Assembly (NCBI GenBank): GCA_937886715.1
Contig: CAKZZD010000020.1
Span: 20,591-84,590 of the forward strand
DNA: 64,000 nt
Reading direction: 5' to 3'
Origin: an uncultured Bacteroidales bacterium
GTDB lineage: Bacteria > Bacteroidota > Bacteroidia > Bacteroidales > P3
The notes beneath the pieces were generated by a model, which worked only from the letters and a program-made list of their open reading frames with translations, was not told the origin of the DNA and made no database searches. The position numbers and the translations under genes are program-made. Of this stretch, positions 4,379 through 34,851 are shown piece after piece. Each line of letters begins with the position of its first letter. The stretch's first letter is position 1.

Positions 4379-5763
4379 AAATAAAAGACCTCATCAAACA
4401 AGACGCCGGCCTGCAATACGCCGTCGACAGCCTCGAACTGATGTCTGCCGCCGGCCGCCGCGCTTTGCTCGACACCGAGTTCAGCACCGACGCCCATTGG
4501 CTTGAAGCCGAATGGCAACGCCTCGACAGGGCCATCCAGACCACCCTCACTTTCAAATTCAAAAAGCCCTACATCGACCTCCGCCACTGCCTGATGCAGC
4601 TCCACGACCTGCGCTCCACCCTCGCCTCGCTGGCCAGCCACACGCCCCTCAACGAGGTGGAACTCTTCGAGGTGAAAAACCTGGCCCACCTCAACCGCAT
4701 CGCCACTGGCGCCATCAGCGGACTGGGCATCTCCGACATTCTCCCCCTGCCGGCAACCGACGATGTCTTCTCCCTGCTCGACCCCGACCACACAGGCATC
4801 CCCAATTTCTATATCTACGACAGCCTCGACCCGCGTCTGACCCCGCTGCGTCGCAAACTCGGAGGCCTCCAGACCTCCGGCGGCGACCCGGCACGCATCG
4901 CCGCGCTGCTGGCCGAACAGAACGAAATCCAAGGCCAAGTGTGTCTCCGCCTCTCCGACCAGCTGTCGCCATGGGCCCCCACCCTGACCGCCGCACTCGA
5001 CCAGCTGGCCTATGCCGACCTCCTGCTGGCCAAGGCCCAGCTCGCCATCGACTGGCACCTCTCCCGACCCACCCTCGGCAATCATATCGCCTTCACAGGC
5101 CTGGTCAACCCGCGCCTCAAACACCGCAACGAGGCCGCCCATCTACGCTACCAGCCGGTCGACATCACCGTCACCTCGGGCGTCACCCTCATCACCGGCG
5201 CCAACATGGCCGGCAAAACGGTGTTGCTGAAAAGCTTGGGCACCGCCCAAACCATGGTGCAATGCGGCTTCTTCGCTCCTGCCGACGAGGCCGTCACCAT
5301 CCTCTTCGACGGCGTCACCTCCTCCATCGGCGACGACCAGGACGAAATGAACGGCCTCAGCAGCTATGCCGCCGAAATCATCAAAATCAGCGATATCGTC
5401 CGCCGCTGCCGCGACCAGCGCCTGCTGGTGCTCATCGACGAACCCGCACGCACCACCAACCCCGTCGAAGGCAAGGCCATCGTCCAGGCCCTCATCAGGC
5501 TCATGCAGCAGTCCGATTCCGCCACCCTCATCACCACACACTACGGCCAGCTCGGCGCCAACTGCCGCCGGCTACGGGTGCGCGGCTTCGTCGAGGACAT
5601 GGCCGACATTCCGCTCACCCCGCGCAACATCAACCTCTTCATCGACTACTCGCTCACCGAAGACCTCTCCGGCGAGGTCCCGCACGAGGCTCTGCGCATC
5701 GCCGACATCCTCGGATGCGACAGCCAGCTGATCGACACCGCACGGCAATATATTGAAAAATAG
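4375..5763 (+). CDS. MutS-related ATPase (MutS domain III/V only; no mismatch-binding or Smr domain)
   Basis: Frame of ORF 3775..5763. The first 200 aa of that ORF are Pro/Arg-rich read-through of the upstream gene. The real start is MKIKDLIKQDAGLQY at 4375. Motifs GANMAGKTVLLKSLG (Walker A), SSYAAEI, LVLIDEPARTTNP (Walker B) and TTHY are present. Confidence 0.8.
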   Translation: MKIKDLIKQDAGLQYAVDSLELMSAAGRRALLDTEFSTDAHWLEAEWQRLDRAIQTTLTFKFKKPYIDLRHCLMQLHDLRSTLASLASHTPLNEVELFEVKNLAHLNRIATGAISGLGISDILPLPATDDVFSLLDPDHTGIPNFYIYDSLDPRLTPLRRKLGGLQTSGGDPARIAALLAEQNEIQGQVCLRLSDQLSPWAPTLTAALDQLAYADLLLAKAQLAIDWHLSRPTLGNHIAFTGLVNPRLKHRNEAAHLRYQPVDITVTSGVTLITGANMAGKTVLLKSLGTAQTMVQCGFFAPADEAVTILFDGVTSSIGDDQDEMNGLSSYAAEIIKISDIVRRCRDQRLLVLIDEPARTTNPVEGKAIVQALIRLMQQSDSATLITTHYGQLGANCRRLRVRGFVEDMADIPLTPRNINLFIDYSLTEDLSGEVPHEALRIADILGCDSQLIDTARQYIEK

Positions 5764-12596: not shown

Positions 12597-13664
12597 ATGA
12601 AAAAAGCCCTTATCACTGGCATCACAGGCCAAGACGGCAGCTATCTGGCCGAATTTCTCATCGAAAAAGGCTACGAGGTGCACGGCATCCTGCGTCGCAG
12701 CAGTTCGTTCAACACTGGGCGCATCGAGCACCTGTACCTCGACGAATGGGTGCGCGACATGCACCAGAAGCGCCTGGTGGAGCTGCATTGGGGTGACATG
12801 ACCGATAGCAGCAGTCTCATCCGCATCATCAGCGAGGTGCGGCCCGACGAAATATACAACCTCGCAGCACAGAGCCACGTGAAGGTGAGCTTCGATGTGC
12901 CTGAATTCACGGCCGACACCGATGCCAACGGAGTGCTGCGCCTGCTTGAGGCTGTGCGCATCACGGGCCTCTCCCAGACATGCCGCATCTACCAAGCTTC
13001 TACGTCCGAGCTCTACGGCAAGGTGCAGGAAGTGCCACAGAGCGAGACGACACCCTTCTATCCGCGTTCTCCCTATGGCGTGGCTAAGCTTTACGGCTAC
13101 TGGATGATGAAGAACTACCGCGAAAGCTACAACATGTTCTGCTGCAATGGCATACTCTTCAATCATGAGAGCGAACGTCGCGGCGAGACTTTCGTCACAC
13201 GAAAAATCACGCTAGCCGCCGCCCGCATCTCACAAGGATTCCAGGACAAGCTCTACCTGGGCAACCTCAACGCTCTGCGCGACTGGGGCTACGCTAGGGA
13301 CTATGTGGAGTGCATGTGGCTCATCCTCCAGCAGGAAAAACCCGACGACTACGTCATTGCCACAGGCCAGTACCACACGGTGCGTGAATTCTGCACCCTG
13401 GCCTTCAAGGAAGCAGGTATCGAGCTACGCTGGGAAGGCGAAGGCATCAACGAGAAAGGCATCGAGGCCCAAAGCGGCAAGATCCTCGTCGAGGTCGACC
13501 CCAAATATTTCCGCCCCGCCGAAGTCGACCAGCTCCTCGGCGACCCCTCAAAGGCCAAACGCCTCCTCGGCTGGGACCCGCAGAAGACAAGCTTCGAAGA
13601 TCTCGTGAAGCTCATGGTGCAGCACGACATGAAAAAGGTCCGCCGCCTGCACCACACAGATTAA
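12597..13664 (+). CDS. gmd: GDP-mannose 4,6-dehydratase
   Basis: The sequence reads [47 protein letters not shown]..., with YGVAKLY and NHESERRG. Confidence 0.95.
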
Positions 13665-13666
13665 GG

Positions 13667-14139
13667 CACACAGAAACCACAGAAATCACAGAAAAACCGT
13701 CACCCCCACGACACCAAATGAAATAACATACGAAATTAGGGGTGCGATATACGATGTGTATAAAGAACTTGGGCCTGGACTATTGGAAAGCGTATACGAG
13801 GAGGCATTGTGTTTCGAACTAGAACAACGCGGATTATTTATTGAACGACAAAAACAGGTGCCTGTCATATACAAGGGCTGCAGACTAAAAACAGATTTAC
13901 GACTCGATATTCTTGTTGAGGACAAAGTTATCGTCGAGTTGAAATCTGTAGAGGAAATGAAAAAAGTGTTCGCCAAACAACTTTTGACATACCTTCGCTT
14001 GATGGACAAAAGAATTGGGATTCTGGTGAATTTCAATACTGACGACATCTTGACATCAATCACTCGAATAGCCAATTGATTATTGCTCAACAAAATGATG
14101 CGTCAGCATAATTTCTGTGATTTCCGTGATTTCTGTGTG
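13667..14139. mobile_element. 473-bp inverted-repeat-bounded cassette carrying a GxxExxY gene, filling almost the whole gmd-fcl gap (13665..14180)
   Basis: The left arm is cacacagaaaccacagaaatcacagaaa (13667-13694). The right arm is tttctgtgatttccgtgatttctgtgtg (14112-14139), whose reverse complement matches 26/28. Each arm consists of three CACAGAAAY 9-mers. Confidence 0.5.
13756..14079 (+). CDS. GxxExxY family protein (PD-(D/E)XK-like); conserved N-terminus lacks a canonical start
   Basis: It contains LGPGLLESVYEEAL, DILVEDKVIVELKSV and GILVNFN. In-frame upstream codons encode NEITYEIRGAIYD, which is the usual family N-terminus, but no ATG/GTG/TTG precedes the GTG at 13756. Confidence 0.7.
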   Translation: MYKELGPGLLESVYEEALCFELEQRGLFIERQKQVPVIYKGCRLKTDLRLDILVEDKVIVELKSVEEMKKVFAKQLLTYLRLMDKRIGILVNFNTDDILTSITRIAN

Positions 14140-14180
14140 ACAAAAAAATGTTTTAACTCCGTGAGAAACATCAGCAAGAA

Positions 14181-15110
14181 ATGAACAAAGACAGCAAGAT
14201 ATACGTAGCAGGGCATCGGGGAATGGTGGGCAGCGCCATTGTGCGGGAACTGCAACGCAAAGGATACAACAATATCATTACACGTACTCATGCTGAGCTG
14301 GATCTCACTCGCCAAGAGGCTGTAGAATCCTTTTTTGAAGCAGAGAAGCCCGAATATGTCTTCCTCGCTGCCGCCAAGGTAGGTGGCATCGCCGCCAACA
14401 GCGCAGCCTTGGCCGACTTCATGTACCAGAACATGATGCTGGAGATGAACGTCATCCATGCCGCCTGGCAGAATGGCGTCAAAAAGCTGGAGTTTCTCGG
14501 CAGCAGCTGCATCTACCCCCGCATGGCGCCTCAGCCCATGAAGGAGGACTGCCTGCTGACCTCGGCGCTGGAACCCACCAACGAAGCCTACGCCCTGGCC
14601 AAGATCAGCGGATTGAAATACTGCGAATACCTCAATCGGCAATATGGCACCGATTACATCTCCGTCATGCCGACAAACCTATATGGCCCCAACGACAACT
14701 ATCATCCCGAGCGCAGCCACGTGCTACCGGCCATGATCCGTCGTTTTCACGAGGCCAAGATGGCTGGTGCGGAGAGCGTCACCTGCTGGGGCGACGGCAG
14801 CGCGCTGCGGGAATTCCTCTACGTCGACGACCTCGCCGAGCTCTGCGTCTTCCTGATGAACAACTACAGCGGCGACGAGACCGTCAATGCCGGCACTGGC
14901 AAAGAGCTCACCATCCGCGAACTGGCCGAGACTGTAGCCAAAGTGGTTGGCTATGAGGGCAAAATACTGTGGGATGCCAGCCGGCCCAACGGCACTCCAC
15001 GCAAACTCCTCGACGTTAGCAAGGCCACCCGCCTCGGCTGGACCTATAAGACGGAGCTGGAAGAAGGCATCCGATTGGCCTACAACGACTACAAAAACAC
15101 CATTATATAA
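14181..15110 (+). CDS. fcl: GDP-L-fucose synthase (GDP-4-keto-6-deoxymannose 3,5-epimerase/4-reductase)
   Basis: It contains [32 protein letters not shown] and [11 protein letters not shown]. Confidence 0.95.
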
Positions 15111-15227: not shown

Positions 15228-16499
15228 ATGCCAACTGCCATAGAATTCAACAATATCAGCAAAATATACCGGCTCGGACTGGTGTCCACCGGCACGCTGA
15301 GCCATGATCTGAAACGCTGGTGGACGATGAATATCCGCCATCAGGAAGACCCCTACCTCACCATCGGCGAGACCAACGACCGCAGCACCAAAGGCGACAG
15401 CGACTACGTGTGGGCGCTGAAAGACATCGACTTCAAGGTAGAACAGGGCGACGTGGTGGGCATCATCGGCAAAAACGGCGCCGGCAAAAGCACCCTGCTG
15501 AAAATCCTCTCTAGGGTCACCGCCCCCACCACCGGCACCATCCGCGCCCGCGGCCGCATCGGCTCGCTGCTCGAAGTGGGCACAGGTTTCCACCCCGAGA
15601 TGACAGGGCGCGAGAATATCTACATGAATGGTGCCATCCTCGGCATGACCAAACAGGAAATCACGCGCAAATTGGACGAGATTGTCGACTTCAGCGGCTG
15701 CGAACGCTATATCGACACCCCTGTGAAGCGCTACAGCAGCGGCATGATGGTGCGCCTCGGCTTCGCCGTCGCCGCCCACCTCGACCCCGAGATCCTCGTC
15801 GTCGACGAAGTCCTCGCCGTCGGCGATGCCGAATTCCAGAAGAAAGCCATCGGCAAGATGCAAGATGTCAGCCGCGGTGAAGGCCGCACGGTGCTGTTCG
15901 TGAGTCACAATATGGCTAGCGTCCAGACACTCTGCGCCAGAGGAATTTTATTGGCAAATGGTACTATAAAGAAAATAGGCACTATTGGTGAAGTAATATC
16001 AGAATATCTATCTACTAACGCATATATTTCATACGATGATATTATGGATAGGTTTAAAGGGAAACAGCTCCCACAAGCCTATTTTACCAAAATTGATTTT
16101 ACTGATGTAGAGGGAAACGTGTGCAAGGCCGCAATATCAGGAGAAACTCTGAATATTGTAATTAGATACATTTCCAATCTCAGACGGCCATTTCACATAA
16201 ATATAGGCATTTACAATCAGGCAGGAGAAAAAATATTACATTTAAGTTCAGAGTATTGTTTGGCAGAAATAGACTTCCAACAACAAGAAGGTACATTTGT
16301 ATTTACCTACAAAAAACTACCTCTACCCAAGGGAGAATACATTATTAACTTCACACTATGGTCTGGATACGAACGAATAGACTGGGTTAGAGATTGCGTA
16401 AAACTAAATGTGACTGAAGGGGACTTTTATGGCAATGGTAAATTACCTGATTCTAAAGAAAATAAAGTTTTAACAGAATATCTATGTCAACAAGTATAG
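15228..16499 (+). CDS. wzt: Polysaccharide ABC transporter ATP-binding protein with C-terminal glycan-binding beta-sandwich (Wzt-type)
   Basis: The nucleotide-binding domain has GIIGKNGAGKSTLLK, YSSGMMVRLGFA and ILVVDEVLAVGD. An extra tail of about 170 aa (ETLNIVIRY...GEYIINFTLWS) is typical of the Wzt C-terminal domain. Confidence 0.85.
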   Translation: MPTAIEFNNISKIYRLGLVSTGTLSHDLKRWWTMNIRHQEDPYLTIGETNDRSTKGDSDYVWALKDIDFKVEQGDVVGIIGKNGAGKSTLLKILSRVTAPTTGTIRARGRIGSLLEVGTGFHPEMTGRENIYMNGAILGMTKQEITRKLDEIVDFSGCERYIDTPVKRYSSGMMVRLGFAVAAHLDPEILVVDEVLAVGDAEFQKKAIGKMQDVSRGEGRTVLFVSHNMASVQTLCARGILLANGTIKKIGTIGEVISEYLSTNAYISYDDIMDRFKGKQLPQAYFTKIDFTDVEGNVCKAAISGETLNIVIRYISNLRRPFHINIGIYNQAGEKILHLSSEYCLAEIDFQQQEGTFVFTYKKLPLPKGEYIINFTLWSGYERIDWVRDCVKLNVTEGDFYGNGKLPDSKENKVLTEYLCQQV

Positions 16500-18919
16500 C
16501 TAAAGGGAAAACAGTTTACGACGTGGTACATGAAAACCTTTGTATTTCATGTGGCGCGTGTAAACCAATTTGCCCTCAAAGTGCCATACAATACAAATTT
16601 GAAAGAGGACTATTTCTTCCCACTATCAACAAAGCTAAATGCATTGCTTGTGAGAGGTGCTTGAAAATATGCCCAAGCCATCAGATTGATGTGGGTGCCT
16701 TATATGGGAATACCGATTTTCTTAACAATGACCAAAAATGTTTTACAGCTTTTTCTAATGACAGAATAATACGACGCTCAGGAACTAGCGGAGGCGTAGT
16801 ATCCACCATTATACTCCGATTGCTTGAAAACAAGGTTTACGAGAAAGCCTACGTTTTAAAGTATGAATCTTTTTCAGACAAACTACAGGCCAAGCTTACT
16901 CCAGTCACGACGAAAGGTGAAATATTGGGCGCAGCCAAATCCAAATACATACCTGCATCTGTCGAAAATGTTATTAACGACATTAGAAACAAACGCATTG
17001 GGAAAGCCATTATTGTTGCAACACCCTGCCAAACAATACCCATTCTCCATGCGATGAAACAATACTCCATATCAGAAGAAGACATATTGATCATTGGCTT
17101 ATTCTGCGACAAAACACTCAACTACAACGTCTATTCATTTTACAGGAAATTGTATGGCAAATACTCGGAGCTTCATTTTAGAGATAAAGAAGCTAATGGT
17201 TGGCCTAGCGACAGTCTACTGGTTTATGGTAACAAAAAGAGAAGAATAGTAAGTAGAGATATCCGAATATCATTAAAGTCATATTTTCAACCGAATCGGT
17301 GCCGTTACTGTTTTGACAAACTCAACCAACTCGCAGATATCAGTTGCGGGGATTGCTATATAGAAAGCGAATGTTCTGCAGAAGGATCCTCAAGTATCAT
17401 AGTTCGTAGCAAAAAGGGCCAAGATGCATTGGATTGTTGTAAACAGGACTTAACATTAAAACTTTCTGATATTTCAGACATAAAAGAATCGCAAAGAACC
17501 GATCTGAAATTAACATCAGTTATACGGAACACCCTTAATGGAGTATTCTATAATTTTCCGGCACTCAGTTATAGTGACAGCGATAAGATTCATTGTTACG
17601 AAAAAAAAGATTTGAAAGATATGGAACTTGGAGGCAAACTTTTTTCTCATGGTGGTTATTCCAAAATCAAAAAAAATATCATTGTGAAAAAATCACATAA
17701 TAACCTCTATTTCAAAAGGATAAAGAAAGTAATCAACTTCTTCAAGCACGCCATTTATAATCCAAGCCGAAAATACAACATACTGATTGACCATATTGGT
17801 TTTAACAATAGAGGTGCTCAACTCATGCTGATGTCTATAGTCGAGCAGATCAAACTTTATATTCCAAAAGCACAGATTGTCGTACCAGAATATGTATACT
17901 ACGAAGGAATCTCATATTGTCATCAACACCATATAGTCCCTCTTCAATATGGCAAAAGTCGAATCAAAACGATTCGAAATAAATATGCTTACCAAAATAT
18001 ACTTAACAAACACACTTATGTTGTCCCTTCCGACATCAATTTGATTCTGGACGCAGGCGGATTTCAGTTCGGAGATACTTGGGTACATGGTGAAAGCGAT
18101 ATTCACCATTGGACTAATTACTATAAACAGTTCACCAAGCCCGAACTGAAGGTTTATTTCCTTCCTCAGGCTTATGGGCCCTTTGACAACAACATTTCAA
18201 AAAAAATCATCTCAATCGCTCACAATGTAGCAACTCGTATGTACTCAAGGGACAATGTGTCCTATGTTCATTTAATGAAAACCTTCCCTGACAGTCAGAA
18301 AATTTTTAAAGCTCCTGATTTTACCATTCTCTTGAAGCCCACAGAATCACCTGTTGTGATACTGAGTCCTCAAAAGTATATTATAATCATCGCCAACAGT
18401 CGAATGATTGACCATTCAGACAGTTCGATTTCCTCTTCATACATTCCATTTTTAGTCCAGATTACCCAAATGCTCATCAATAATGGCGAGAATGTTCTGT
18501 TCCTAAACCATGAAGGTATTGATGATGAATTATTGTTACAAGAAGTCGACAGACAATTGTCTGTCGAAATCCCTATTATCACCCGGATTTCTGCCATAGA
18601 CACAAAAAGCATTATTGGGAAAGCCAAACTGCTAATTAGCTCAAGATTTCATGGGGTTGTAAGCGGCCTTACTCAAAATGTCCCAACATTATGCGCATCA
18701 TGGAGTCATAAATATATTGAGTTACTCAAAGAACATCAATGCGCCGATAGTTTATTGGACACCACTAACATCGAAAGCAGTAAGGTTATAATCAACGATG
18801 CGTTATTGAATCCCCAAAAATACACAAGCAAATTTGGGTGCAATCAACAAATCTCAACAAGTGCAGTTCAGATGTGGAAAGATATTTTTAAACAAGTATG
18901 TAACACACTTGATTATTAA
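16484..18919 (+). CDS. Fusion protein: 2x[4Fe-4S] ferredoxin + FrhB-like (F420 hydrogenase/dehydrogenase beta) domain fused to a polysaccharide pyruvyl transferase domain
   Basis: The N-terminus has CISCGACKPICP and CIACERCLKICP, then SGGVVSTI...ATPCQ...GLFC. The C-terminal half has NRGAQLM, LDAGGFQFGD and LLISSRFHGVVSGL (pyruvyl-transferase-like). It is one 811-aa ORF in a markedly AT-rich region. Confidence 0.7.
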   Translation: MSTSIAKGKTVYDVVHENLCISCGACKPICPQSAIQYKFERGLFLPTINKAKCIACERCLKICPSHQIDVGALYGNTDFLNNDQKCFTAFSNDRIIRRSGTSGGVVSTIILRLLENKVYEKAYVLKYESFSDKLQAKLTPVTTKGEILGAAKSKYIPASVENVINDIRNKRIGKAIIVATPCQTIPILHAMKQYSISEEDILIIGLFCDKTLNYNVYSFYRKLYGKYSELHFRDKEANGWPSDSLLVYGNKKRRIVSRDIRISLKSYFQPNRCRYCFDKLNQLADISCGDCYIESECSAEGSSSIIVRSKKGQDALDCCKQDLTLKLSDISDIKESQRTDLKLTSVIRNTLNGVFYNFPALSYSDSDKIHCYEKKDLKDMELGGKLFSHGGYSKIKKNIIVKKSHNNLYFKRIKKVINFFKHAIYNPSRKYNILIDHIGFNNRGAQLMLMSIVEQIKLYIPKAQIVVPEYVYYEGISYCHQHHIVPLQYGKSRIKTIRNKYAYQNILNKHTYVVPSDINLILDAGGFQFGDTWVHGESDIHHWTNYYKQFTKPELKVYFLPQAYGPFDNNISKKIISIAHNVATRMYSRDNVSYVHLMKTFPDSQKIFKAPDFTILLKPTESPVVILSPQKYIIIIANSRMIDHSDSSISSSYIPFLVQITQMLINNGENVLFLNHEGIDDELLLQEVDRQLSVEIPIITRISAIDTKSIIGKAKLLISSRFHGVVSGLTQNVPTLCASWSHKYIELLKEHQCADSLLDTTNIESSKVIINDALLNPQKYTSKFGCNQQISTSAVQMWKDIFKQVCNTLDY

Positions 18920-18973
18920 CAATCACCGTTGGTAAGCGAAAACATGTAATTCAGATACAACTTAGAATTGATC

Positions 18974-19855
18974 ATGGGAAACAGACCTCTCTTCTCATTA
19001 CTAATAGCCAACTACAACAACGGCTGCTATCTACAGCAGGCCATTGATAGCGTGATGGCTCAGACCTACGACAATTGGGAGATTATCTTAGTGGACGACG
19101 GTTCAACAGACAATTCTGCCGAAATATACAAAAAATACGAATCCGATCCCCGTTTTCATATCTACTTCAACGATAAGAATCATGGCTGCGGATACACCAA
19201 ACGCCGCTGCGCAGAACTGGCCAATGGAGAAATATGCGGATTCCTTGACCCAGACGACGAGTTATTGCCAGATGCGCTAATGCTTCATATCAACGAACAC
19301 CTGAAAAACAGAGACTGCGCAATTGTGTATTCCCGTTGCAACTATTGCAATGACGCAGGTGAAATCATCGGAATTAGCCAGCTCCCTCCCTTTAAGGAAG
19401 GCGAAACTTTTTTTGACTATCGCTGGTATGGTACCATGAACTTTGCTTCATACAAGAAAAAAAAGTATGATAAGACTGAGGGCATCTCTGCCACACTAAA
19501 AGCTGGTGTTGACCAAGACCTTTATTTTAAGGTTGAAGAGACTGGGGAGATTGTCGCTCTAGACAAAATCACTTATCGCTATTACAAAAGACATACAGAT
19601 ATGGCAATCACATCAGTCGCCAATCAAGCTGATCTTTGGTATTGGAATCTTGTAGCAAGAAGGGAAACCTGCAAACGTAGGAACATAGACGAACACAAGA
19701 TTCTCCGCGATGATTTCGAATTTATACACAACTTTCTGATCAAAGAAGAATGCGTTAAAACAGAGATGAGAATCAGAAATTCACTTCCTTACAGAATTGG
19801 TAAGATTTTTTTAACTCCTTTTTATCTCATCCGTAATTTCTTCCAACAAAAATAA
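18974..19855 (+). CDS. Glycosyltransferase family 2
   Basis: It contains FSLLIANYNNGCYLQQAIDSVMAQTYDNWEIILVDDGSTDNS and DPDD. The track start at 18968 is TTG; the ATG is at 18974. Confidence 0.85.
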   Translation: MGNRPLFSLLIANYNNGCYLQQAIDSVMAQTYDNWEIILVDDGSTDNSAEIYKKYESDPRFHIYFNDKNHGCGYTKRRCAELANGEICGFLDPDDELLPDALMLHINEHLKNRDCAIVYSRCNYCNDAGEIIGISQLPPFKEGETFFDYRWYGTMNFASYKKKKYDKTEGISATLKAGVDQDLYFKVEETGEIVALDKITYRYYKRHTDMAITSVANQADLWYWNLVARRETCKRRNIDEHKILRDDFEFIHNFLIKEECVKTEMRIRNSLPYRIGKIFLTPFYLIRNFFQQK

Positions 19856-21838: not shown

Positions 21839-22281
21839 CTCAATCAGATTTTAAAAGAATCATGGATAAGGACTTGATATATACTATTATTGGATGCGTA
21901 CTGAAAGTTCATTCAAAATTAGGTCCGGGCCTTTTAGAGTCTGTTTACCAAAAAGCATTGATGATTGAATTGGACAATGAATGCCTTTCGGCAGAAGAGG
22001 AAGTGCCATTAGAAATAATGTATGATGGAAATAACCTCGGATTAGGTTTTAGAATGGACATCTTGGTTGAAGGCTAGATTATCCTTGAACTAAAATCCGT
22101 ATCAGCTTTAGAAAAAGTACACTTCAAGCAGTTACAAACATACCTGAAACTATCGAACAAACCTTTGGGATACCTAATAAATTTCAACGTGGACAAAATG
22201 GTTATCGGCTCAAGCATCCATCGCATCACAAACATCAACTATCAAGAATAACTCTTTTATAATCTTTTACAATCTGATTGA
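21839..22281. mobile_element. 443-bp inverted-repeat-bounded cassette carrying a GxxExxY pseudogene
   Basis: The left arm is ctcaatcagattttaaaagaatc (21839-21861). The right arm is tcttttataatcttttacaatctgattga (22253-22281), whose reverse complement tcaatcagattgtaaaagatt matches 19/21. Confidence 0.5.
21862..22251 (+). pseudogene. GxxExxY family gene interrupted by an in-frame TAG
   Basis: The sequence MDKDLIYTIIGCVLKVHSKLGPGLLESVYQKAL...DILVEG is followed by TAG at 22075-22077. The same frame then continues IILELKSVSALEKVHFKQLQTYLKLSNKPLGYLINFN... to TAA at 22249-22251. Confidence 0.75.
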
Positions 22282-34797: not shown

Positions 34798-34851
34798 CTA
34801 ATCAGATTTATCACAAATGATTCTTTTATAATCTTTTACAATTTGATTGAG
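34798..34851. repeat. Third copy of the cassette inverted repeat (full right arm, stub of left arm); a further degenerate right arm lies at 34889-34908
   Basis: ctaatcagattt ... tcttttataatcttttacaatttgattgag, and further on tcttttagttctgattgtg. Confidence 0.8.

Follow-up and report, generated by a model that had tools for sequence, protein, structure and literature searches.

The stretch analysed here, 64,000 nucleotides of a contig from an uncultured Bacteroidales bacterium (CAKZZD010000020.1; hereafter the window), carries a 473-bp unit between gmd and fcl, in which a single open reading frame (ORF) of the GxxExxY family is enclosed by inverted arrays of short tandem repeats. This unit is probably a selfish single-gene cassette of the intervening sequence (IVS) type, residing in a protein-coding operon and carrying a GxxExxY gene of the PD-(D/E)xK kind as cargo. 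The cassette is an insertion at the gmd-fcl junction, because close relatives have empty junctions: in loci L172 (gmd 94% and fcl 91% identical) and L176 (92% and 89%, respectively), the ATG of fcl and the stop codon of gmd overlap. An earlier note on this DNA had pointed to empty junctions in relatives as the sign of such an element, and these two loci provide them.

The gmd gene (TIGR01472, 572 bits) ended with a TAA stop at 13662-13664, and fcl (GDP-L-fucose synthase) began with an ATG at 14181. Recomputation of the inverted repeat (IR) returned the limits given in the earlier note (gmd stop at 13664, cassette from 13667, arms matching at 26/28 positions): the arms, 28 nt each, lie at 13667-13694 and 14112-14139, are 26/28 complementary and stand 417 nt apart. 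The ungapped IR score of the cassette was 23, compared to a maximum of 10.5 in 200 shuffles. Tandem Repeats Finder displayed a period of 9 (CACAGAAAC) with 2.9 copies in the left arm and 3.0 in the right one. The three-unit build described earlier was therefore retained, while the claim that every unit reads CACAGAAAY was not, since the third left unit ends with A instead of Y and the middle right unit has a G mismatch. In the whole window, the double 9-mer gave four overlapping matches, all within the two arms, for 0.01 expected. The G+C content was about 38% in the cassette versus about 58% in its flanks, and an Rfam scan of the window returned a tRNA as the sole match and no family on the arms.

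The enclosed ORF matched TIGR04256 (E 2e-42, 144 bits for a cut-off of 35) over profile positions 1-115 of 116, and PF13366 (PDDEXK_3, PD-(D/E)xK; E 1e-40, 139 bits for a cut-off of 22), making it a full-length member of the GxxExxY family above the curated cut-offs. The motif G-P-G-L-L-E-S-V-Y, D67 and E77-x-K79 were invariant in two alignments, including the 46%-identical paralogue, and these conserved PD-(D/E)xK residues mark the ORF product as a predicted nuclease. Upstream of the cassette, the C-terminus of gmd reads ..LHHTD* in the window and ..LHAEE* or ..LQEQLDD* in the empty-site relatives. In L174, CACACAGAC, the same unit as in the gmd tail of the window, precedes the arm. The altered gmd tail presumably arrived together with the insertion.

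The gmd-fcl junction was surveyed in 80 gmd loci from metagenomes, and most loci besides the empty ones had a gap of 10-30 nt between the two genes. Window-type cassettes occupied the junction in L173-L175, L232 and L233. Other occupants were a different GxxExxY gene (47% identical) with tandem arms of CCGTTAAT type in L171, PF05635 (23S_rRNA_IVP) cassettes in L210 and L237 and a gene-less hairpin in L186, all with arms built of tandem units, and a degenerate 571-nt insert without ORF in L177. In the gmd tree, empty and heterologous states nested among the loci with window-type cassettes. Cassettes are gained and replaced at this junction, decay, and leave gene-less remnants.

Two of these junctions displayed further particularities. 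In L171 (2770-3300; gmd 94% identical), the gmd frame enters the left arm and its stop codon is supplied by the arm unit CCGTTAATT; such insertions remodel the ends of host genes. In L177 (3575-4110), serial short tandem arrays (TTTACGG-, GGAGCAAGG- and CTTTCAA-type) were found along with two sets of right-arm-type units, and this insert resembles the debris of cassettes that were inserted into one another or in succession.

Within the window, the cassette gene has lost its start codon. Position 1 of the GxxExxY profile corresponds to nt 13717, upstream of the first GTG (13756), and no in-frame ATG, GTG or TTG occurs between 13666 and 13756, as had been stated before. The codon at 13708-13710, ATG in 12/12 orthologous gmd-cassette-fcl loci, reads ACG in the window; the missing start is therefore, judging from this comparison, a T>C point mutation (ATG>ACG) private to this contig. 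The closest proteins start with MTPNEITYE, and the use of GTG 13756, the first usable start, would cost 16 residues. The ORF was skipped by gene callers on the source contig (from a bioreactor metagenome), and the window copy, with its ACG start and no gene call, does not represent an intact, translatable gene. It is probably a fresh pseudogene with persisting arms.

A second GxxExxY cassette of the window (Table 1) has arms at 21840-21858 and 22263-22281 (18/19) whose sequence is unrelated to that of the first cassette's arms. Its ORF is interrupted by an in-frame TAG at 22075-22077, where relatives display CAG (Gln), and the orthologous loci L259 and L260 are intact. Both GxxExxY genes of the window were thus inactivated by single transitions (ATG>ACG and CAG>TAG). 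A gene-less remnant of the second type lies between a 467-codon gene and a GT4 gene, at a junction where the orthologous loci L251-L258 harbored an intact cassette (flanking proteins 69% and 66% identical). The states observed (empty, filled, dead and remnant) together recall a selfish nuclease gene passing through its life cycle. The right arm of the remnant was nearer to that of the second cassette of the window (about 2 differences per 30 nt) than to that of the cassette at the orthologous site.

Cassette and flanking genes displayed different divergences between relatives. The proportion of synonymous differences (pS) between the window and L013, L014 and L232 was 0.57-0.59 for gmd, 0.51-0.55 for fcl and 0.11-0.13 for the cassette ORF, and an independent pair (L174 and L175) gave 0.54, 0.53 and 0.11, respectively. 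Between the window and L174, the values were 0.62 for gmd, 0.54 for fcl and 0.74 for the cassette ORF. Because cassette divergence differed more than six-fold at equal flank divergence (L013, L014 and L232 versus L174, each compared to the window), these sequence comparisons support a cassette history decoupled from that of the flanks, implying horizontal exchange. Between the window and L013, a sharply delimited tract of 614 nt (13578-14191) differed by 4%, against about 18% beyond its limits, and overshot the arms by about 90 nt on the left and about 50 nt on the right, into gmd and the fcl leader. As the exchanged tract extends beyond the arms, this pattern looks like recombinational exchange through flanking homology, not like excision at the arm ends.

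Proteins 88% identical to that of the window, with the same CACAGAAAY-type arms, were also found at two other junctions in other polysaccharide loci, and the number of 9-mers varied from 2 to 4 between near-identical loci. The small mobile element that the earlier note had suspected thus gained support from the empty sites, the same arms elsewhere and the decoupled history. In L023-L032 (about 3047-3190 in L023 coordinates), a gene-less unit composed of a left arm, 125 nt and a right arm was followed by a 5' fragment of gmd, and full-length gmd was absent among the called genes of this 5.4-kb locus; the fragment may be the footprint of a cassette that carried flanking gmd to a new site.

Cassettes located at different sites displayed saturated pS (0.73-0.95) and a proportion of nonsynonymous differences (pN) of about 0.10. 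Because pN was this low at saturated pS, the comparison places the GxxExxY protein under strong purifying selection. Across those saturated pairs the arms were 93-100% identical, with unrelated adjoining spacers: the left arm of the window was 93% identical to the left arms of L015 and L174 (other sites), and its right arm was 100% identical to that of L174 and 93% to that of L015. As far as these alignments tell, it is the arm sequence that is constrained, not merely self-complementarity, and this conservation points beyond a simple RNase III stem. The nuclease alone travels with the arms and subfamilies have other arm units, which suggests a cognate recognition of arms by the protein. Alternatively, the left arm could be conserved for doubling as a translation-initiation region; the arm units are A-rich within Bacteroidota, and outside this phylum they contain AAGG or GAGG.

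Part of these results would also be accounted for by a DNA transposon of the cut-and-paste or copy-paste kind, in which the arms would be terminal inverted repeats bound by the GxxExxY protein as a PD-(D/E)xK transposase. Integration and excision would take place exactly where the arms end, and gene-less hairpins would be similar to miniature inverted-repeat transposable elements (MITEs). The arm sequence is conserved and was kept while synonymous sites became saturated, and in most loci its polarity is fixed, the TCAC end facing outwards; the same arms are found at three different junctions, and gene-less arm pairs exist. Arm mismatches were also devoid of a sense-strand G.U preference (26 sense-wobble, 36 antisense-wobble and 69 other), a result in favor of a transposon and at odds with the reading proposed here. 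A transposon is nevertheless unlikely: target-site duplications were not recognisable at these diverged and remodelled junctions, the shared tract runs past both arms, no multi-copy bursts were seen (one CACAGAAAY cassette in 64 kb), and the gene-less remnant of the window corresponds to an orthologous site with an internal deletion and not to a dispersed copy.

To place the window cassette within its family, 80 GxxExxY loci were surveyed, one each from 80 species of Bacteroidota, Acidobacteriota, Cyanobacteria, Planctomycetota, Verrucomicrobiota, Desulfobacterota, Chloroflexota, Chlamydiota and other phyla. The best IR between the 120-nt flanks of each gene was scored, and scores of at least 14 were considered strong. 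GxxExxY genes were systematically flanked by IRs across phyla, a question raised by the earlier note: the median score was 15.8 versus 7.5 in mismatched-locus controls (p = 6e-22), and 56% of GxxExxY genes had a strong IR versus 3% of the neighbouring genes from the same loci (odds ratio 43, p = 5e-20). Clear tandem periodicity was observed in about half of the 45 loci with strong IRs, mostly of 8 nt (18 loci) or 9 nt (5 loci). Arm units were mostly 8 nt long outside Bacteroidales (CGCAAAGG or CGCAGAGG) and 9-10 nt long within (CACAGAAAY or CACAGATTT). A CRCARA-type core was common to most strong arms, with TCAC as the outer end in many. Arms abutted ORF start and stop in many loci, and the order of the window (units, gene, inverted units) was found in about half of the loci.

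When ORFs of 70-260 codons with strong flanking IRs were sought blindly in all retrieved DNA, almost exclusively GxxExxY genes were returned, the exceptions being two 23S_rRNA_IVP (PF05635) and two GIY-YIG genes. The boxed-gene design was seen with a third protein family in L182, where two small GIY-YIG genes (643-1008 and 4876-5241) each lie between copies of a repeat that is palindromic in itself (..CTGCGGA-N5-TCCGCAG..). The GxxExxY family encompassed 18,416 clusters at 50% identity, and in a representative library many members of 260-295 residues displayed two tandem GxxExxY domains.

The genes next to GxxExxY cassettes were unrelated housekeeping genes, with 171 Pfam families among 126 neighbouring genes and no conserved partner gene among them, and 7 of 75 cassettes were antisense to both neighbours. 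None of the 80 family loci had an rRNA context according to Rfam. The family was rare in a plasmid collection (8 records), and a scan of viral contigs with arm 18-mers gave 58 single chance-like matches, none adjoining a GxxExxY gene. PADLOC returned one weak Cas4 match (E 4e-4) and no defence-system context.

In the predicted RNA fold of 13655-14150, the arm stem closed the whole ORF in both the minimum free energy and centroid structures (z = -4.4), in agreement with the stem that the earlier note had envisaged for the 28-nt arms. A scan with consensus promoters and terminators detected no terminator and no promoter-like site inside the cassette. RNase III processing of the cassette transcript is plausible by analogy with rRNA IVSs, and the processing or insulation of operon mRNA that the earlier note had suggested would be hypothetical. 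Such a stem could alternatively serve the host, as an RNase III site that uncouples the stability or translation of gmd and fcl mRNA, the ORF being incidental and without a part in spread, and the whole inherited vertically. Besides the long-range stem and the lack of a terminator, the arms abutting ORF start and stop in many loci, the precedent of rRNA IVSs and the persistence of arms after ORF death are consistent with this role. It appears rather improbable, less so than an inversion or integron origin but more so than a transposon, since the empty junctions of close relatives function without the cassette, cassette history is incongruent with that of the flanks and the protein is under strong purifying selection. 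In addition, the same design is found beside the 171 unrelated neighbour families and antisense to both neighbours in the 7 cassettes mentioned above, and the arm sequence itself is conserved, without compensatory drift.

Invertible promoters are known in Bacteroidales polysaccharide loci, and inverted repeats within such a locus could suggest an inverton, in which a recombinase flips the inter-arm segment and leads to phase variation of the polysaccharide operon. This is hardly credible, the least probable of the origins considered: the ORF was co-oriented with gmd in all of the about 20 orthologous or near-orthologous loci, recovered from independent metagenomes, no promoter-like site lies inside, and the same design stands beside housekeeping genes in many phyla. 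The inverton was rejected on the single orientation across all recovered orthologous loci. A cassette of the integron type, whose repeats would be attC-like sites for an integron integrase, was scarcely more probable. Small, mostly co-oriented ORFs without known function and the hairpin-gene-hairpin pattern of some loci are features that fit an integron, but in the majority pattern two half-sites enclose the ORF instead of a compact hairpin following it, and the insertions are single ones between housekeeping genes, not arrays. It was rejected on this geometry.

As a selfish IVS-type cassette, the unit would spread horizontally, mainly by recombination through conserved flanking genes, in a homing-like process with co-conversion of the flanks. 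The encoded nuclease would promote this spread and recognise its cognate arm units, which could explain why the arm sequence is conserved beyond pairing. Upon read-through from the operon promoter, the arms would pair into a 26-28-bp RNA stem enclosing the ORF. RNase III would cut this stem, if rRNA IVSs are a guide, and the stem would also occlude the initiation region of the ORF; through processing or occlusion, the parasite could sit in the operon with little harm. More speculatively, GxxExxY cassettes as a whole could form a large class of autonomous mini mobile elements that has gone unrecognised, in which a nuclease of about 14 kDa would recognise its own arms and spread into intercistronic junctions across phyla. 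ORF-bearing 23S rRNA IVSs would then be the rRNA-resident branch of this class, and both would be excised harmlessly via the arm stem and RNase III.

Several observations weigh against the selfish cassette proposed here. Neither a target-site duplication nor a precise excision footprint could be defined, the junctions being about 10-17% diverged and the gmd tail remodelled. The CACAGAAAY arms had no second copy in the 64 kb, which are part of a genome; no genome was found to have near-identical copies at several of its sites, and transposition is hypothetical. The 5-fold lower synonymous divergence of the cassette could partly reflect a lower rate, although the incongruence of L174 argues otherwise. 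Within the family, 44% of loci lacked a strong IR within 120 nt, and a minority displayed the opposite arm polarity, usually with complete small gene-less hairpins on each side. Among 23S_rRNA_IVP genes, just 3/15 had a strong IR within the 120-nt flanks, and two further ones had arms farther out or at the gmd-fcl gap. The nuclease activity of the GxxExxY protein and its binding to the arms are putative, and RNase III cleavage is purely an analogy with rRNA IVSs. A PDB sequence search with the GxxExxY protein found no homologue, and the AlphaFold2 model, of mediocre quality (predicted local distance difference test score 74), had no significant fold match in the PDB by Foldseek, the best being the CinB nuclease domain (probability 0.77).

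Table 1. Coordinates of the cassettes, their parts and the remnant in the window
Feature	Coordinates	Strand	Remarks
Low-divergence tract	13578..14191	+	Last 87 nt of gmd, cassette, fcl leader and first fcl codons; common to diverged relatives
Altered gmd 3' tail (..CAC CAC ACA GAT TAA GG)	13650..13666	+	Holds the arm-like unit CACACAGAT and the gmd stop
Left arm	13667..13694	+	About three tandem 9-mers, CACAGAAAC / CACAGAAAT / CACAGAAAA, after CA
GxxExxY / PDDEXK_3 ORF	13708..14079	+	123 codons + TGA; start codon mutated to ACG at 13708-13710
Right arm	14112..14141	+	Three inverted 9-mers, ATTTCTGTG / ATTTCCGTG / ATTTCTGTG, end ..TGTGAC
Leader, right arm to fcl ATG (14181)	14142..14180	+	Absent at empty sites (fcl ATG and gmd stop overlapping)
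Second GxxExxY cassette, between two glycosyltransferase genes	21840..22281	+	ORF 21862-22251; protein 46% identical to the first copy
Gene-less remnant, second-cassette type	34798..34850	+	Left arm CTAATCAGATT, last 12 nt of the ORF TATCACAAATGA, right arm TTCTTTTATAATCTTTTACAATTTGATTGA

The polysaccharide locus surrounding the first cassette was compositionally mosaic, and NTP_transf_5, gmd, the cassette and fcl separate wzm from wzt. The G+C content fell abruptly to about 35% (window positions 15900-19000), from the last ~600 nt of the wzt-like ABC ATPase gene into an 811-codon gene, which encodes a Fer4 / FrhB / polysaccharide pyruvyl-transferase fusion.

No described function was found for the GxxExxY family in the searchable literature, and its family-wide link to inverted arms made of tandem repeats appears to be previously undescribed there. 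What is new here is a probable IVS-type selfish element outside rRNA, with a predicted nuclease as cargo. Because inverted tandem arrays, junction gain and loss, and an IVS-like architecture occur together, the family gains a concrete and testable biology as a selfish nuclease cassette. This biology connects two puzzles, the origin of rRNA IVSs and their ORFs on the one hand, and the small nuclease-like genes littering polysaccharide and housekeeping operons on the other. It also predicts a cognate protein-repeat recognition code, with CACAGAAAY, CGCAAAGG, CCGTTAAT and AATCAGATT as subfamily units. For annotation, arms, gene-less remnants and altered gene tails at junctions (e.g., in L171, where an arm provides the gmd stop) lack annotation at present.

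The closest known counterpart of the cassette is the ORF-bearing 23S rRNA IVS, as in Coxiella and Leptospira. The IVS of Coxiella burnetii is 428-444 nt long, with a 28-bp stem bearing one or two imperfections, and tandem heptamers (GACAGAT, 3-4 copies, their number varying between strains) directly precede the start of an ORF of about 14 kDa (PMC4990558). This ORF is decaying, the authors view the IVS as a selfish element, and RNase III was shown to cut within the stem in vitro and by rapid amplification of cDNA ends (PMC4990558). The rRNA IVS geometry proposed in the earlier note is therefore closely matched, down to the 28-bp stem, the tandem repeats before the start and the decaying ORF. 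The cassette has a comparable size (473 nt) and a terminal IR stem, a single ORF of about 120-130 codons fills the loop in both, and short tandem repeats vary in copy number in both (2-4 for the 9-mers of the cassette). In relatives L210 and L237, a cassette of this kind at the gmd-fcl junction carries the PF05635 IVS protein itself. Unlike 23S IVSs, which are defined by their location in helix 25 or 45 of 23S rRNA, the cassette lies between protein-coding genes, and its cargo is a PF13366 PD-(D/E)xK nuclease instead of the four-helix-bundle S23p / PF05635 protein. RNase III excision is demonstrated for rRNA IVSs, whereas for the cassette it would follow by analogy.

Free-standing homing endonuclease genes, such as seg and mob located between conserved genes of T-even phages, share with the cassette the insertion of a small gene with a nuclease fold between conserved genes. 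Presence/absence polymorphism of the site, shared tracts running into the flanks and a phylogeny at variance with theirs, all typical of homing genes, were found for the cassette. Its shared tracts resemble co-conversion, the cycle of invasion, decay and loss is similar, and GIY-YIG genes were found in the same design. Homing endonuclease genes are not known to need flanking inverted repeats; the cassette differs from them by being IR-flanked and by the occurrence of related cassettes at several unrelated junctions, and empty-site cleavage by GxxExxY is hypothetical.

Two further systems associate repeats with intergenic insertion. Correia elements of Neisseria are MITEs that are co-transcribed with operons and cut by RNase III; they are non-coding, about 100-150 bp long, highly multi-copy and flanked by TA duplications. 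Like them, the cassette is an IR-bounded intergenic or intercistronic insert with gene-less derivatives, and its transcript hairpin would be an RNase III substrate, but it is protein-coding, its loop spans 417 nt and the window contains just one copy of it. Repetitive extragenic palindromic (REP) sequences form REPtrons with REP-associated tyrosine transposases (RAYTs), the RAYT enzyme being an HUH/Y1 transposase. A single gene flanked by inverted short repeat units, with small palindromic gene-less units near the gene in some loci, is common to REPtrons and GxxExxY cassettes, whereas the PD-(D/E)xK fold and the lack of repeat dispersal within the 64 kb of DNA available set the cassette apart from them.

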